Below, one piece after another: positions 3,145 to 14,390 of a stretch of DNA of 64,000 nt. Source of the stretch: a virus (taxonomy: Duplodnaviria; Caudoviricetes). Positions within the stretch are counted from its first letter, which is position 1. Each line of letters starts with the position of its first letter. The notes beneath the pieces were generated by a model, which was given only the letters and a program-made list of their open reading frames with translations, was not told the origin of the DNA and did no database searches. Where the stretch lies: positions 96,001-160,000 of IMG/VR virus record IMGVR_UViG_3300023174_003901; one strand, given 5' to 3'. The translations under genes were made by a program, and so were the position numbers.

Positions 3145-3205
3145 CAATGTCTCCTTGACATACATATACAACGCCATAGCCCTACAAAGGGTTTACATAG
3201 TCAAA

Positions 3206-3231
3206 AAAATAGGCTCCGAAGAGCCTATTTT
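3206..3231 (-). terminator. intrinsic terminator after tmRNA
   Basis: AAAATAGGCTC-TTCG-GAGCCTATTTT followed by a T run on minus strand. Confidence 0.85.
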
Positions 3232-3232
3232 G

Positions 3233-3565
3233 GTGGTTTCTGTTACGAGGTATTTCCTACCCTAGGCGGCTGTTAAGCGGCCAATGCGAACTGTTCGTCG
3301 TTTGCTTTTACGTTTTTTGTTGTCTTCGGCCAGGAACTCCCAACCCTACGGCTTCCACATTGCCGAGCGCCATTACCCCTACTCTTTGCCCTGTCGAAAC
3401 TATGCAGGCCCATCAAAAAAAGAAATGTAATATGATGACAAATATTAATAGTGTTATTACTACTACATCACATGTTCTACATTTGTCCATAACATATCCT
3501 CTTTTGGTGGACCTGGGGGGATTCGCACCCCCGTCCAGAACACTTTTCTTGATAACAGTTTACGC
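3233..3565 (-). ncRNA. ssrA: circularly permuted (two-piece) tmRNA
   Basis: Acceptor piece (T-arm ...CAGGTCC-A-CCA ending at 3505) precedes the coding piece (5' GGGCCTG at 3411); 7-bp acceptor stem with G3.U70; tag frame 3305-3273 = ANDEQFALAA*. Outer boundaries approximate. Confidence 0.93.
3413..3490 (-). CDS. 25-aa hydrophobic peptide inside the tmRNA intervening segment
   Basis: SD GAGGA then MDKCRTCDVVVITLLIFVIILHFFF*; stop ends 1 nt before tmRNA G1. Confidence 0.5.
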   Translation of the reverse strand: MDKCRTCDVVVITLLIFVIILHFFF

Positions 3566-3579
3566 TGTTTGAGTATTTA

Positions 3580-3873
3580 TTATTGATAAATCACTACGTC
3601 TTGGAAGTCTTCACCGTTGACACAGAGTGCGTATTCACGTTTGGCATTATAGCCTTTCTTTAGCACAACCATACCGTCTGCTGTGGTAAAGATTACTTTG
3701 GTACCAATGGTCATACGACCTAGACCCAATTCTCTACGCTCAAATTCAGGATCGTTCATGATCTTGCCACTGCCAAAATCAATACCGTTGTAAACAGCAG
3801 GCACTCGCTCGCCGTTGACCAATAGTACGTATTGGCTGTTTTTGACTAACTTGCTAGGGATAATCTTACGCAT
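3580..3873 (-). CDS. hypothetical protein
   Basis: 97-aa ORF with SD AAGGAA, below a sigma70 promoter. Confidence 0.7.
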   Translation of the reverse strand: MRKIIPSKLVKNSQYVLLVNGERVPAVYNGIDFGSGKIMNDPEFERRELGLGRMTIGTKVIFTTADGMVVLKKGYNAKREYALCVNGEDFQDVVIYQ

Positions 3874-4850: not shown

Positions 4851-4926
4851 TGGTGCCCCCTCCAGGTTACGCTCCTGGCTTTCAGGATTTTCAGTCCTGC
4901 ACTTTCACTAGATTAGTTTAAGGGGC
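4851..4926 (-). tRNA. tRNA-Phe(GAA)
   Basis: Cloverleaf, anticodon arm CAGGA-CTGAAAA-TCCTG, encoded CCA. Confidence 0.92.
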
Positions 4927-7466: not shown

Positions 7467-7540
7467 TGGATGCGGGGGACAGATTCGAACTGCCGATGCA
7501 CCTGGCTTATGAGACCGGTGTGGTGACCTCCCTCCCCGCG
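7467..7540 (-). tRNA. tRNA-Met(CAT), initiator-like but atypical
   Basis: CGCGGGG acceptor with C1.A72 mismatch, loop CTCATAA; lacks three consecutive GC anticodon-stem pairs; U discriminator. Confidence 0.8.
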
Positions 7541-8056: not shown

Positions 8057-8085
8057 ATTATACACAATTATCTATTGTGTGTCAA
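8057..8085 (-). promoter_or_regulatory. sigma70 promoter within tRNA array
   Basis: TTGACA-N17-TATAAT; spacer holds inverted repeat ACACAAT/ATTGTGT. Confidence 0.8.
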
Positions 8086-8973: not shown

Positions 8974-9047
8974 TGGTACCCCCGGGAGGTAACGCTCCTC
9001 CGATTGCCGCTTATCAAGCGGCTGTTATACTTTTTAACTAAAGGGGC
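8974..9047 (-). tRNA. tRNA-Ile(GAT)
   Basis: GCCGC-TTGATAA-GCGGC; non-canonical D and T loops; CCA. Confidence 0.85.
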
Positions 9048-9667: not shown

Positions 9668-9891
9668 ATATGAAAAAACATTTGGGAACCATTGTGGATC
9701 TCTTTCTGCTTGGCTTGCGAGGCCAAGTCACCACGGTCATTACTGCCAGACGATCCGCCGCTTTTCTGGATCTACTTGTTACAGTAGAGAGCCGGCTTCA
9801 TGACTGGTAGTAAGTGGGTACCCGCCGGTACCAATTGGACACTTCTACCAATGCCTCTAACGGGTCTGGTAACCCTAATGTGTTCTCATAT
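9668..9891 (-). ncRNA. inter-tRNA RNA with shared closing stem (C, ~224 nt)
   Basis: ATATGAGAACACATTAGG ... CCAAATGTTTTTTCATAT; inner hairpins GGTAC/GTACC, TCTACT/AGTAGA, CTTGGC/GCCAAG. Confidence 0.55.
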
Positions 9892-9976
9892 AGTGCCTGC
9901 GAACAGGACTACATATACGTAATTTTTAAAGATCTCTACAACTGTCTCGATCGACTTTGTTGCTTTGTTAAGTTCT

Positions 9977-10005
9977 ATTGTAGCATCAACCGATTTATTG
10001 GTCAA
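9977..10005 (-). promoter_or_regulatory. sigma70 promoter within tRNA array
   Basis: TTGACC-N17-TACAAT with extended TG. Confidence 0.7.
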
Positions 10006-10037: not shown

Positions 10038-10111
10038 TGGCACGGGAACTAGGGCTCGAACCTAGAATGACAGAGTCAAAGTCTGTAGTGTTACCATTAC
10101 ACTATTCCCGA
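10038..10111 (-). tRNA. tRNA-Gln(TTG)
   Basis: ACAGA-CTTTGAC-TCTGT, G73, CCA. Confidence 0.92.
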
Positions 10112-10117
10112 ACAATC

Positions 10118-10209
10118 CGGCGGAAGACGGAGGAGTCGAACCCCATCCGATTTCTCGGAACCTGGTTTTCAAGGCCAGTCGCGGTACCAATACCACTGCA
10201 TCATCTTCC
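10118..10209 (-). tRNA. tRNA-Ser(TGA), 3' end encoded as CCG
   Basis: Loop CTTGAAA, long variable arm; ends TCTTCC-G-CCG. Confidence 0.88.
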
Positions 10210-10213
10210 AACA

Positions 10214-10297
10214 TGGTACCCTTGGTGAGATTCGAACTCACATATTATACTCCTCTGTTTGAGAGAGGCGACTTTACCAAAATTTGTCCACAAGGGT
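10214..10297 (-). tRNA. tRNA-Leu(CAA)
   Basis: CCTCT-CTCAAAC-AGAGG, CCA. Confidence 0.9.
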
Positions 10298-10321
10298 CTA
10301 ACACACTGTTGCCAATGTGTG

Positions 10322-10380
10322 TATCGAAACACTCTACATGGATGAACCCACTTGCCTCGCGGCCTGAGAATGCTTCGATA
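10322..10380 (-). ncRNA. small three-way-junction element (D)
   Basis: TATCGAAGCATTCT/AGAGTGTTTCGATA stem enclosing GCC-GCGA-GGC and TGG/CCA hairpins. Confidence 0.45.
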
Positions 10381-10488
10381 CGCTGTAATTTTTCACACTA
10401 GAAGAAGTGCTTCATCCTACAGGCCGCCCATTTGCCGGATGTTTTAAGTGCCCAGCAGGGTCTCGTTCCCTACACACACTTTGCGATG

Positions 10489-10644
10489 TTAACGGTTCTC
10501 TTGGAGAACCTCTCGCTTGCTTCGAGCATTGTCATATGCTTGAGCACGTTCTAACTTCTCTGCAATTATCTTGCGAAGATCTTGTTGAGTTAGGGTGTGC
10601 TGTCGCGTAAACTCTGCTTGCCTTTTTAATTTTGTATCTGTCAT
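10489..10644 (-). CDS. small hypothetical protein (51 aa), first gene after the attenuator
   Basis: SD AAGGAA then MTDTKLKRQAEFTRQHTLTQQDLRKIIAEKLERAQAYDNARSKREVLQENR*. Confidence 0.7.
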   Translation of the reverse strand: MTDTKLKRQAEFTRQHTLTQQDLRKIIAEKLERAQAYDNARSKREVLQENR

Positions 10645-10661
10645 TTTCCTTGTTCCAAAAA

Positions 10662-10694
10662 CAAAAAACCCTGGAGTTTTTAGTTCCAGGGTCC
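10662..10694 (-). terminator. intrinsic terminator of the putative attenuator
   Basis: ACCCTGGA-ACTAAAAAC-TCCAGGGT then TTTTTG. Confidence 0.8.
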
Positions 10695-10719
10695 TTTGAA
10701 GTCTGAGTATGCGGTTGAA

Positions 10720-10863
10720 CTATACTCTGTCTCCTTGGACCCTGATTCTATCTAATGTGCGACCATTATTCATGCTCTCAATCGCAAACCACAAGGCGGG
10801 GCAGGTGCCCAGACTTAGCGTCGGCTGATAGAGTGATATGGAATAATGTGCGGAATGTTTCAT
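10720..10863 (-). CDS. putative attenuator leader peptide (47 aa)
   Basis: MKHSAHYSISLYQPTLSLGTCPALWFAIESMNNGRTLDRIRVQGDRV*; 3' end holds CAGGGTCC, complementary to terminator arm GGACCCTG. Confidence 0.7.
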   Translation of the reverse strand: MKHSAHYSISLYQPTLSLGTCPALWFAIESMNNGRTLDRIRVQGDRV

Positions 10864-10872
10864 CTTGTGCTT

Positions 10873-10901
10873 ATTGTATAGGTTTATTTATACCTTGTCA
10901 A
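10873..10901 (-). promoter_or_regulatory. sigma70 promoter with nested TATAAATA at the head of the tRNA array
   Basis: TTGACA-N17-TACAAT; TATAAATA at 10885-10892. Confidence 0.8.
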
Positions 10902-11629: not shown

Positions 11630-13273
11630 TCATGCTTGGCTAATCAGCCATTCTGAGAAAGTTTCTGTGCTATGATCTATGCTTTGTATTTTTGGTATGG
11701 TCAATTTCTTGAATATTAAATTTTTATATGCAATCATTCTTTGCATTTTTTTCTTATCTAATGCATGCCAGTCAACCTGGGGGTTCGTTTTGTTAAAACT
11801 GGTTGATAAATCAACTCCTAGCCCTGCTATGCTAAATGCCGCAAGCCCACTGACATTATTTCGTATGGTTTGAGATTTTTGTTGTATGTCCTCTACCATT
11901 TTTTGAATTTCCAATCGATCAGTATGCTCATTTTTCCAAATCAACTGACCTTGCTCATTTCTATTTTGAGTATAAATTGATCCGCGACTTTCGTCGTTGC
12001 CTATCACACTATAGCCATATTTGGAATAGTTCTTGTCAAGATCACTGAGGAAGTCGTTAGAGTAGGTTTGATTATTTGGCCTGATACTCAGTGCTTGAAC
12101 TATCCAAGAGTCCAATGGGTTTTTGTCACTCATTAAAAAATCTGTAGTTTCTTGCAAACTGCTCAATGATTCGTGTGGCAATCCGTATATAAAAGACCCG
12201 TGCAAATTTACATGATTTCCGTATTGTTGTTTTATTTTTCGAACAGTATCAAACAAACGAGTACGATCGCCTCCTTTGCCAATGGCACTAGCGGTCTTGG
12301 GGTTAAGAGTTTCGATTCCAAAAAATGCTGAACGTAGGCCGCTTTCAAACAACCACTCAACAGTTTCTGGGTGTGCTGTCAACAAATCCAGTCTGATATA
12401 TCCCCACCACTCTAACTTAAATGGCAATCTCTTGCTCATGTCATAAATCATCTGACATTTTTCAGGACTGTCGTTCACAGTGTCATCACAAAAAATATAT
12501 CTTGTGATTCCAAATCGTTCATAGTTGTCGACCAATTCTGCATAGATGTAATCCATGTTCCGTATAAAATCCAATTTTTTCTTTCCATTCATTGGATAGG
12601 AACAGAATGCACATTTAAAAATACAACCACGTGCAACTTCTAACAGCAAGGTTTCTCCGGGCAGAATTGCATCATGATCTTCGTAACGCATCTGGCATTC
12701 GTTAAAATCATAAGTCTCTGCTCGGCTATCATTGATTATAATAGACCCGTGTACGCTTTTGTGTGCTTTTTGTAAATCTATGTTTGTGTCACAAAGATGC
12801 TGTGCTAGATTAACTATTGATGTTTCTGAGTATCCGATACACTGATAATCAAAAATTTTGTTGTATTCAACATCTCTAGCAGTAGGACCACCTAGAGTTA
12901 GTTTACAGTTGGGATTGCAGTCACGGATTAGATTTTTGATAATCTCATTGTATTGAGGGCCATGTGGTAATATACAACCGGGCGCAATGTTTTGTAAAAT
13001 CACACCCCCGTTCTCAGACCTGTTTGGATTTGCAATATCAGCATAAAAGAAGTTGTTAACTCCTACAAACAGAGTTTTGTCTGAAATAAGGTTACGCAAT
13101 ATGTGACAAATTTCCTCAACAGTAAACACACTGAGATGATGTAGAACTGCGACTTGAAACCCTTGACTTCTCAAGGCCTGGGCAACTTTATAAGGTCCCA
13201 GGGTCTTGCTCAAAGTAATTACATCAGTCTTGTCAGACAGTAAAATTACATTGGGAAAATTTTTGTCAAACAT
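11630..13273 (-). CDS. B12-binding-like radical SAM protein
   Basis: EVARGCIFKCAFC (CxxxCxxC), DDT, FFGIET, GLPHES; N-terminal flavodoxin-like region. Confidence 0.85.
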   Translation of the reverse strand: MFDKNFPNVILLSDKTDVITLSKTLGPYKVAQALRSQGFQVAVLHHLSVFTVEEICHILRNLISDKTLFVGVNNFFYADIANPNRSENGGVILQNIAPGCILPHGPQYNEIIKNLIRDCNPNCKLTLGGPTARDVEYNKIFDYQCIGYSETSIVNLAQHLCDTNIDLQKAHKSVHGSIIINDSRAETYDFNECQMRYEDHDAILPGETLLLEVARGCIFKCAFCSYPMNGKKKLDFIRNMDYIYAELVDNYERFGITRYIFCDDTVNDSPEKCQMIYDMSKRLPFKLEWWGYIRLDLLTAHPETVEWLFESGLRSAFFGIETLNPKTASAIGKGGDRTRLFDTVRKIKQQYGNHVNLHGSFIYGLPHESLSSLQETTDFLMSDKNPLDSWIVQALSIRPNNQTYSNDFLSDLDKNYSKYGYSVIGNDESRGSIYTQNRNEQGQLIWKNEHTDRLEIQKMVEDIQQKSQTIRNNVSGLAAFSIAGLGVDLSTSFNKTNPQVDWHALDKKKMQRMIAYKNLIFKKLTIPKIQSIDHSTETFSEWLISQA

Positions 13274-13297
13274 TGGTTGCCTTGATCATATCATGCT

Positions 13298-13327
13298 ATT
13301 ATAGCAACAAGTATCAATCAATGTCAA
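13298..13327 (-). promoter_or_regulatory. sigma70 promoter
   Basis: TTGACA-N18-TATAAT. Confidence 0.65.
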
Positions 13328-13830
13328 CTATTCAAAACCTTGGCAACTGAGTTCATTACTGCGGCAATACGGCCAATGTCACGAAGTTGTTCTACAGTGT
13401 AGCCTTCTGTCTTGAGTGTTTCATAATGTGACCGAACACAAAAGTGACACTTGCCCACAATGCTTGCTGCCAAACTGAATGCTTCAAAGTTACTCTTGGT
13501 AGTTCCGCCATGTGACGCAATAGCGTTCATGCGTAACTGTGCTGGCAATCCTGTTAGGTTAGGATCATCAGCCATTTCAACGTAGGGGTACCATACATTG
13601 TTCTGTGACATAATACTTGCGGCTGTCATTGCTGACTCTGCATGTACTGGCGCATCTGCTAATAGGATACTCAGTACCTTCCCGTTGCCAGTTGCAGCCA
13701 GTGCGGCCACAGCACAACCCATGGCCACATCTGCATCCAAAGTGCTACGTACAAGAACAGCATCAAGATTTAACTTGGTGTCCTTGGCGTAGTCTGGCAA
13801 CGCTGATTTAACTGCGTCGATAAATGCCAT
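13324..13830 (-). CDS. ahpD: alkylhydroperoxidase AhpD
   Basis: LPDYAKDTKLNL N-terminus, SIVGKCHFCVRSH (CxxC); directly after ahpC. Confidence 0.92.
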   Translation of the reverse strand: MAFIDAVKSALPDYAKDTKLNLDAVLVRSTLDADVAMGCAVAALAATGNGKVLSILLADAPVHAESAMTAASIMSQNNVWYPYVEMADDPNLTGLPAQLRMNAIASHGGTTKSNFEAFSLAASIVGKCHFCVRSHYETLKTEGYTVEQLRDIGRIAAVMNSVAKVLNS

Positions 13831-14390
13831 TATAGTGTCTCTCCGCCCACTGTGCGGTTACAAGCACACAGTTCGCCAGTTTGCAATGCGTCTAATACAC
13901 GCAGAGTTTCTTCTGGGCTACGACCCACGTTCAAGTTGTTGACAGTGACATGTTGGATGACGTTGTCTGGATCCACAATGAATGTGGCACGAAGTGCGGC
14001 ACCTGCTGGAGCATAGAATACGCCCAACTGTTCAATAAGGCTTACGCTACCACGCTCTTCGCCGGGTTGGTGACGAGCAGTGTCAGCAAACTGATGATGT
14101 GTGATCTTACGCAAATCATCGTGACTCTTTTGCCATGCTACCTTGCAAAACTCGTTGTCTGTTGAGCCTGTTAGCAATACTGCATCACGATCAGCAAAGT
14201 CTTGTGCCAACTTGTCGTAGGCTACGATTTCTGTAGGGCAAACAAATGTAAAGTCCTTTGGATAGTAAACAATCACTTTCCACTTGCCTTCAAACGATTT
14301 TTCTGTAATCGTATAGAAAGCGTCTTCTGGTTGTCCAGGTTTGACGCCTGTTACTGCAAATTTTTCTAACTTATCGCCAACTGTTAACAT
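13830..14390 (-). CDS. ahpC: peroxiredoxin AhpC
   Basis: YYPKDFTFVCPTE, GRSPEETLRVLDALQ, ELCACN. Confidence 0.95.
   Translation of the reverse strand: MLTVGDKLEKFAVTGVKPGQPEDAFYTITEKSFEGKWKVIVYYPKDFTFVCPTEIVAYDKLAQDFADRDAVLLTGSTDNEFCKVAWQKSHDDLRKITHHQFADTARHQPGEERGSVSLIEQLGVFYAPAGAALRATFIVDPDNVIQHVTVNNLNVGRSPEETLRVLDALQTGELCACNRTVGGETL

Follow-up and report, generated by a model that had tools for sequence, protein, structure and literature searches.

A putative leader-ORF transcription attenuator ahead of tRNA arrays in related freshwater phages

The closest described systems are the trpL, hisL, thrL, leuL, pheL and ilv attenuators of enterobacteria, in which a short leader ORF is combined with an intrinsic terminator and with a hairpin that competes for the 5' arm of that terminator, and in which a ribosome reaching the end of the leader favours termination. 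The phage module described here has the same parts, and the same direction of response is predicted for it. It departs from the enterobacterial leaders in its composition, which is unusually diverse and holds no run of codons for one amino acid; in its segments, of which there are three instead of four, with no 1:2 or pause helix found; in its start, predicted to be leaderless in most members, and its stop codon, which lies inside the antiterminator; and in its targets, which are phage tRNA genes, a small ORF and a structured RNA, as opposed to the biosynthetic enzymes of the enterobacterial operons.

Leaders that likewise carry no codon run are those of vmlR and yxjB of Bacillus subtilis, where ribosome stalling on the leader ORF turns a terminator off (PMC9226507, PMC6851288); a sensor of this kind reports general translation performance, and the phage module would be alike in this, although the Bacillus systems belong to Firmicutes, respond to drug-bound ribosomes and control resistance factors, whereas the present carrier is a phage with a betaproteobacterial-type tmRNA and the targets are translation components. 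In E. coli pyrBI and pyrE, and in the effects of stop-codon proximity on termination (PMC4824070), the distance between ribosome and polymerase at the terminator decides the outcome, as is proposed here. The sign is opposite: in pyrBI and pyrE a close ribosome blocks the terminator and gives read-through, whereas in the phage module the ribosome is predicted to remove the antiterminator.

Phage tRNA arrays are now regarded as a means of countering mismatched codon usage, host shut-off and tRNA-cleaving immunity (e.g. PMC12409363). Full-text literature searches gave no paper on attenuation ahead of such arrays.

Anatomy of the module and its genomic setting

The stretch analysed here (the window, 64,000 nucleotides) comprises bases 96001-160000 of a 200-kb IMG/VR viral contig with a completeness estimate of 58%. 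It belongs to a giant freshwater phage with minus-strand gene direction and the standard genetic code, whose DNA is contained in lake and freshwater metagenomes and whose complete relatives are ~350 kb long with terminal repeats. An earlier interpretation made from the letters alone (the sequence-only reading) had proposed an attenuator upstream of the tRNA genes; the promoter, 47-codon ORF, long hairpin, overlapping terminator and codon count (41 distinct in 47) that it described are all present. The module, with all coordinates on the minus strand, is arranged as follows:

10901-10873, minus strand: sigma-70-type promoter TTGACA-N17-TACAAT (TTGACA 10901-10896; TACAAT 10878-10873), score 11/12
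10863 (ATG) to 10722-10720 (TAG), minus strand: leader ORF1, 47 sense codons and stop
10799..10810, minus strand: small mid-ORF hairpin GGGC-ACCU-GCCC
10789..10791, minus strand: single Trp codon (W25) of ORF1
10744-10687, minus strand: antiterminator hairpin, with the ORF1 stop codon inside its 5' arm
10691-10658, minus strand: intrinsic terminator with a 7-bp stem, a 9-nt loop and a U-tract

No Shine-Dalgarno sequence precedes ORF1 in the window, and its ATG lies only 9 nt past the -10 box, so that the mRNA is predicted from promoter geometry to be leaderless or to carry a leader of 1-3 nt. Transcripts with a 1-3 nt leader are translated poorly in E. coli.

The antiterminator hairpin is composed of the helices CAGGGUCC/GGACCCUG, GGAG/CUUC and GAGUAU/AUACUC. 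In the terminator, CCCUGGA (10691-10685) pairs with UCCAGGG (10675-10669), followed by UUUUUUGUUUU (10668-10658); the first five nucleotides of the terminator, CCCUG, are common to both structures. When both states were folded, as the sequence-only reading had suggested, the full hairpin was the free fold (-31.3 kcal/mol; z = -3.5 against shuffles) and a terminator-containing fold lay ~4 kcal/mol above it in the window, within an overall gap of 0-5 kcal/mol between the two folds. The window hairpin amounts to -25.4 kcal/mol at the decision point, and masking the ribosome footprint left the terminator alone to fold.

Neither the fold nor the alignment fold yielded a conserved upstream partner ("segment 1", forming a 1:2 helix) for the 5' arm of the antiterminator, so an untranslated transcript should read through by default, unlike that of the trp leader. 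The small mid-ORF hairpin appeared in both the fold and the alignment fold, with one pair changed from G:C to A:U; it is a possible pause hairpin, a role which is speculation. Searches of Rfam 15, T-box included, returned no match at E <= 1 over window positions 10650-10900 and none at E <= 0.1 in four relatives.

On the same strand, 3' of the module, the window carries 27 tRNAs for all 20 amino acids (relaxed ARAGORN plus Rfam). The full set of amino acids is spanned once four tRNAs missed by default ARAGORN are counted, three of which are recovered by Rfam and all four by relaxed ARAGORN; these are listed together with a tmRNA:

10119-10209, minus strand: tRNA-Ser(UGA)
8974-9047, minus strand: tRNA-Ile(GAU)
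7467-7540, minus strand: an extra tRNA-Met(CAT)
4851-4926, minus strand: tRNA-Phe(GAA)
3205-3616, minus strand: tmRNA, permuted (two-piece), of betaproteobacterial type, tag ANDEQFALAA

A tmRNA is also present in the relative L105, just upstream of the attenuator module of that phage. Just 5' of the window's tRNA region (11630-14390, minus strand) lie a radical SAM gene of 547 residues, which weakly matches a B12-binding domain, and two smaller genes (168 and 186 residues), whose products we take, by eye from the sequence, to resemble AhpD and AhpC/peroxiredoxin; the only match among these two small genes is that of the 186-residue protein to a PHROG of unknown function. Radical SAM and AhpD/AhpC-like genes would be unusual auxiliary genes for a phage.

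Conservation of the two competing helices in 24 family members

Searched by blastn against 50,697 phage records, the region gave no match. Through the adjacent phosphoesterase gene, 80 related loci were collected, of which just three carry the element at that position; the impression that the other 77 lack it was abandoned, because a covariance model built from the hairpin and the terminator and applied to the whole records of related phages located the module elsewhere, beside their tRNA arrays. Together with homologs from an 18-mer scan of metagenome contigs, a peptide word-index search and a peptide-alignment profile search, the module is known from 24 distinct contigs; the phages, all related, uncultured and from freshwater, fall into about nine sequence lineages. 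It is always single-copy, one per record, and wherever downstream sequence exists a same-strand tRNA array begins ~250-600 nt 3' of it (1,266 nt in one).

The succession of promoter, leader ORF, antiterminator and terminator recurs in all 24 members. A pattern scan recovered both promoter boxes (-35 and -10), with the ATAAATAAAC spacer motif, in 23 of them. The ATG lies 6-10 nt past the -10 box in 18 members; the remaining six have a longer leader, four of them with the ORF start 48-57 nt past the -10 box, after a purine-rich tract, and two with a start position that was not placed by the scan. The longer-5'-leader subfamily consists of L102, L109, L110, L111 and L112. In L102 (1340-1390), L109 and L110, a mini-ORF of 2-3 codons (ATG CGC TGA or ATG CGC CAA TAA) occupies the leaderless position, and a small ACACAC/GUGUAUGU hairpin lies between it and the real ORF1.

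Every member has a terminator with a G+C-rich stem of 5-8 bp and a U-tract, and in every member the stop codon (TAG, TAA or TGA) falls inside the hairpin, 8-26 nt past the start of the basal 5' arm. The spacing from stop to terminator is held at 25-30 nt throughout (24/24), despite unrelated hairpin interiors: apical stems have been swapped wholesale between subfamilies (GAGUAU/AUACUC, UGUAAAU/AUUUACA or a perfect 12-bp stem), and the sole part to persist across them is the basal stem, which overlaps the terminator. The hairpins range from -14 to -29 kcal/mol and, as claimed for the window's antiterminator, consume part of the terminator's 5' arm, sequestering 3-7 nt before the 3' arm exists (24/24; the overlap is just 3-4 nt in two members). 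On comparison of the 24 members, it is the RNA architecture that is conserved, and not the sequence.

Covariation in the antiterminator, which the sequence-only reading had named as a check, was found for both of the alternative helices. Pairing in the basal stem of the antiterminator reaches 93.6% across the 24 sequences, and both sides have changed in 11 cells, in an alignment that was fitted to the hairpin and consists of related sequences; 0/500 shuffles equalled this or the covariation score of the stem, and sliding the partner by 1-3 columns lowered pairing to 26-58%. The terminator helix, which lay outside the model that built the alignment, is 98.8% paired in the same 24 sequences, with three covarying pairs and 25 compensatory cells, again equalled by 0/500 shuffles. 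The nucleotide common to both helices is mostly U, and its partner is then A or G in hairpin and terminator alike; in five sequences it is C, and both partners are then G. The hypergeometric probability, calculated by hand for the G partner on the hairpin side only, is ~0.005. Such a three-way pattern at a shared nucleotide is expected if selection acts on two helices that exclude each other.

Coding signature and composition of the leader ORF

The ORF1 frame is open in 24/24 homologs, at 31-49 codons, including distant lineages with largely different nucleotides. Every indel among the ten closest homologs has a length divisible by three, and the Nei-Gojobori pN/pS is about 0.27 (subclade 2) to 0.38-0.4 (all), against 1.0-1.6 and 0.6 in the other two frames of the region. 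Parsimony assigns 30 synonymous and 35 non-synonymous changes to ORF1, where random placement gives 17.8 +/- 3.4 synonymous ones (P = 0.0012) and a 7% chance that no stop codon arises. ORF1 thus evolves as a coding sequence, and both its pN/pS and its synonymous excess point to translation. The poor amino-acid conservation anticipated by the sequence-only reading did not hold: substitution is constrained to the extent given above, and exactly one Trp occurs in every leader, in a single alignment column, 13-26 codons ahead of the stop. Between subfamilies the peptide is strongly divergent.

Metatranscriptome contigs from four runs are scattered and derive from relatives, and none of them spans ORF1. 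TPR repeat proteins matched in the profile search were judged to be summed weak repeat matches, not homology. In the window subfamily ORF1, its TAG, a 75-nt spacer (window 10644-10722, minus strand) and the next ORF (ORF2) lie in one frame with no further stop; fusion of the two by read-through of TAG was discounted, as the shared frame is absent in other subfamilies and the code is standard, and it is probably a coincidence.

The purifying selection and the invariant Trp imply that the ORF1 peptide may have a function of its own as a protein, which counts against an attenuator. In the fullest form of this alternative, ORF1 is an ordinary small phage protein of 31-49 residues acting in trans, the hairpin gives stability to its mRNA at the 3' end, and a leaky terminator fixes the ratio of short to long transcripts with no sensing of translation. 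Besides the selection, it would accommodate the conserved motifs (the single Trp, and a DRTPE kept within one subfamily) and the purine-rich tract before the ATG in the longer-5'-leader subfamily. We nevertheless consider it unlikely, for the stop codon is placed inside the hairpin at a set distance from the terminator in all 24 members with unrelated hairpin interiors, the helix competing with the terminator covaries, and the RNA geometry is kept while the peptide diverges; moreover, the AlphaFold model of ORF1 is of low confidence (pLDDT 57), and neither ORF1 nor ORF2 matched a family in Pfam or PHROGs.

The constancy of the Trp also raises the alternative of a TnaC-like arrest or sensor peptide, in which the invariant residue or its UGG codon, in place of overall codon diversity, is the sensing element and could report charged tRNA-Trp or a small ligand. 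The residue holds its position in all 24 leaders in a peptide under purifying selection, and in the L103 and L116 subfamilies the array next to the module begins with tRNA-Trp; yet the distance from Trp to stop is variable (13 to 26 codons), which makes a fixed contact in the ribosomal exit tunnel less likely, sensitivity is weak in classical attenuators with only one regulatory codon (PMC1183508), and in the window tRNA-Trp stands behind a later promoter, so that we hold this reading to be improbable. Slighter still is the chance that a trans-acting factor (a phage or host protein or RNA) sets the switch by acting on the hairpin, or that the terminated ~200-nt RNA is a dual-function small RNA: in the window's subfamily the 58-nt hairpin is near-invariant while the upstream ORF changes by ~0.5 substitutions/site, conservation beyond the needs of pairing that suggests sequence-specific recognition, but between subfamilies all of the hairpin except its basal stem is exchanged, no Rfam family matches, and the maintenance of the ORF and the placement of its stop codon are left unexplained.

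The leader had further been taken to sample nearly every tRNA species. For 47 codons the uniform expectation is 32.9 distinct (the sequence-only reading had arrived at ~33), and the probability of at least 41, the count in window ORF1, is ~1e-4 to 3e-4; ORF1 also encodes all 20 amino acids. Among 27,971 stop-free frames of 47 codons in the 64-kb window, only four reach at least 41 distinct codons, and these overlap one another over ORF1. The phage's own genes fall below the uniform expectation: simulated draws from its codon usage yield 30.2 distinct codons in 47, and the mean over real stop-free frames is 29.7.

The nearest relatives of the window leader use 41/48 and 39/48 distinct codons. 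Subclade 2 leaders, with 31-34 distinct of 40-44, are not individually significant and miss F, I or P; the L100 leader has 32 distinct of 45, the L116 leader has 14 amino-acid types only, and several leaders in the family go without two to six amino acids. When the median of each lineage was taken, with the start codon and Trp held fixed, amino-acid types exceeded the uniform expectation in 8/9 lineages (Stouffer Z 3.9) and distinct codons in 9/9 (Z 3.6), P-values that are optimistic because the lineages are homologous. Outside subclade 2 there are eight leaders with 44-49 codons, and all but one encode the complete set of 20 amino acids, a composition with P about 0.02-0.04 in each, and Cys, Phe and similar rare residues occupy non-homologous positions between lineages. 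An early reading that codon diversity is not conserved was set aside in view of the significant trend over nine lineages, which is not universal. The sampling idea thus survives in that diversity lies above random and fails for the members that lack amino acids; high codon and amino-acid diversity is partly supported as a family-level trend.

Leader composition was also compared with the tRNAs lying within 16 kb downstream. By wobble rules, the phage tRNAs read 39/47 codons of the window leader (83%) against ~49/61 sense codons (80%), which is no enrichment. Arrays for 19-20 amino acids go with leaders of 19-20 types; the arrays of L116 and L117 lack Asp, Glu, His and Tyr and their leaders lack Glu, His and Tyr, and in the L103 type every array is without tRNA-Glu and every leader without Glu. 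Missing amino acids overlap between leader and array about twice as often as expected (Fisher combination with one p per lineage, p ~0.06). A match between leader composition and array repertoire is suggestive only, being confounded by leader length.

Elements behind the terminator and the proposed switch

The tRNA array does not follow the window terminator at once. The order of ORF and terminator at its head is as the sequence-only reading described, but a second ORF and a structured RNA of ~170 nt precede the first tRNA:

10489..10644, minus strand: ORF2, 51 codons, with an AGGA ribosome-binding site, beginning directly past the U-tract
10300-10480, minus strand: conserved structured RNA, unclassified, between the attenuator/ORF2 and the first tRNA
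10038..10297, minus strand: tRNA-Leu(CAA), tRNA-Ser(UGA) and tRNA-Gln(UUG), without a promoter of their own

In relatives the place of ORF2 is taken by a homologous ORF of 51-56 residues or by a 15-residue micro-ORF, and is empty in six. The micro-ORF lies directly 3' of the terminator in L084 (4194-4241) and likewise in L020, L088, L089, L091, L093, L098 and L103; its 15 codons read M(S/T)TEEYW(R/Q/K)WI(H/Q/R)(D/N)NVQ, with two Trp, mostly synonymous variation and a strong AGGAG ribosome-binding site.

The structured RNA, ~170-230 nt long, is the most constant downstream element, its GGGCGGC core being present in 16/24 members. The core reads ..AACGAG..CACU.AAAAC..GGGCGGCC..GCGUAU.RAAGCA.., with a closing helix ACACAC/GUGUGU. 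Window positions 10300-10480 matched no Rfam family, and 10378-10451 are deeply covered by one freshwater metatranscriptome.

Past the terminator, no promoter-like site was found until a consensus promoter is reached at 10005 (10005-9977); ORF2, the structured RNA and tRNA-Leu, -Ser and -Gln, having no promoter of their own, would therefore depend on read-through or on transcripts from further upstream. Additional consensus promoters lie inside the window array at 8085 and 6144, and similar ones occur in L103 and L104. With these internal promoters the switch can directly gate the array head only, and most tRNAs are independent of it, so that the control of the whole array envisaged by the sequence-only reading narrows to those few elements. 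The promoter at 10005 (TTGACC-N17-TACAAT, with extended TG) drives ~300 nt, within 9668-10005 on the minus strand, that run as far as tRNA-Glu and hold no convincing ORF; conserved in L020, L084, L088, L089, L093 and L098, this stretch is a candidate non-coding RNA.

We judge it moderately likely that the module is a ribosome-mediated (leader-ORF) transcription attenuator, by which read-through into the tRNA genes is probably made dependent on the translation performance of the ribosome. Against this reading stand the poor translation of 1-3 nt leaders in E. coli, the default read-through expected of an untranslated transcript, the short overlap of 3-4 nt in two members and the internal promoters of the array. 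From the anatomy and its conservation we infer a transcription start, translation of ORF1, coupling of ribosome and polymerase, a direction of switching and a physiological signal. Host RNA polymerase would start from the promoter at 10901, and a ribosome would load on the nearly leaderless AUG. If it keeps in step with the polymerase, the 5' arm of the hairpin would be unwound or covered while the terminator is being transcribed, a ribosome at the stop codon covering roughly 10-13 nt further downstream; GGACCCUG would thereby be free, the terminator would fold, and the transcript would end at ~10658-10668. The stop codon, 25-30 nt ahead of the terminator, implies that the ribosome would leave the terminator itself unobstructed: folding of a terminator is reported to require at least 10-15 nt of free RNA between it and the ribosome, and termination was measured at ~90% with a stop 28 bp upstream and <10% with one at 5 bp (PMC4824070). 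Were the ribosome absent, or lagging at a slow codon anywhere in the mixed-codon leader, the hairpin would form first and retain the basal CCCUG of the terminator, and the polymerase would read through; as the same paper reviews, closing of the last terminator base pairs is required for termination (PMC4824070). Read-through would yield ORF2, the structured RNA and tRNA-Leu, -Ser and -Gln, and would add to transcription deeper in the array.

A leader of ~45 mixed codons would integrate delays at all of them and so report general decoding speed; its varied codons suggest that what is sensed is the overall capacity for translation, not one amino acid. The stronger proposal, that the leader is a pan-amino-acid "test message" matched to the phage tRNA repertoire and gauging global decoding speed, such that a shortage of any tRNA switches on the array head and the structured RNA, we put forward tentatively, as possible but rather doubtful. 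The triggers envisaged for it are starvation, host shut-off and tRNA-cleaving defence and, if true, a "test message" leader would amount to feedback-controlled supply of phage tRNAs.

The 24 natural variants allow the direct design of reporter and in-vitro tests, and the family suggests that an unclassified structured RNA is among the co-regulated products. As an attenuator, the phage module would carry the textbook mechanism beyond the supply of amino acids to that of tRNAs, and from bacteria to viruses.
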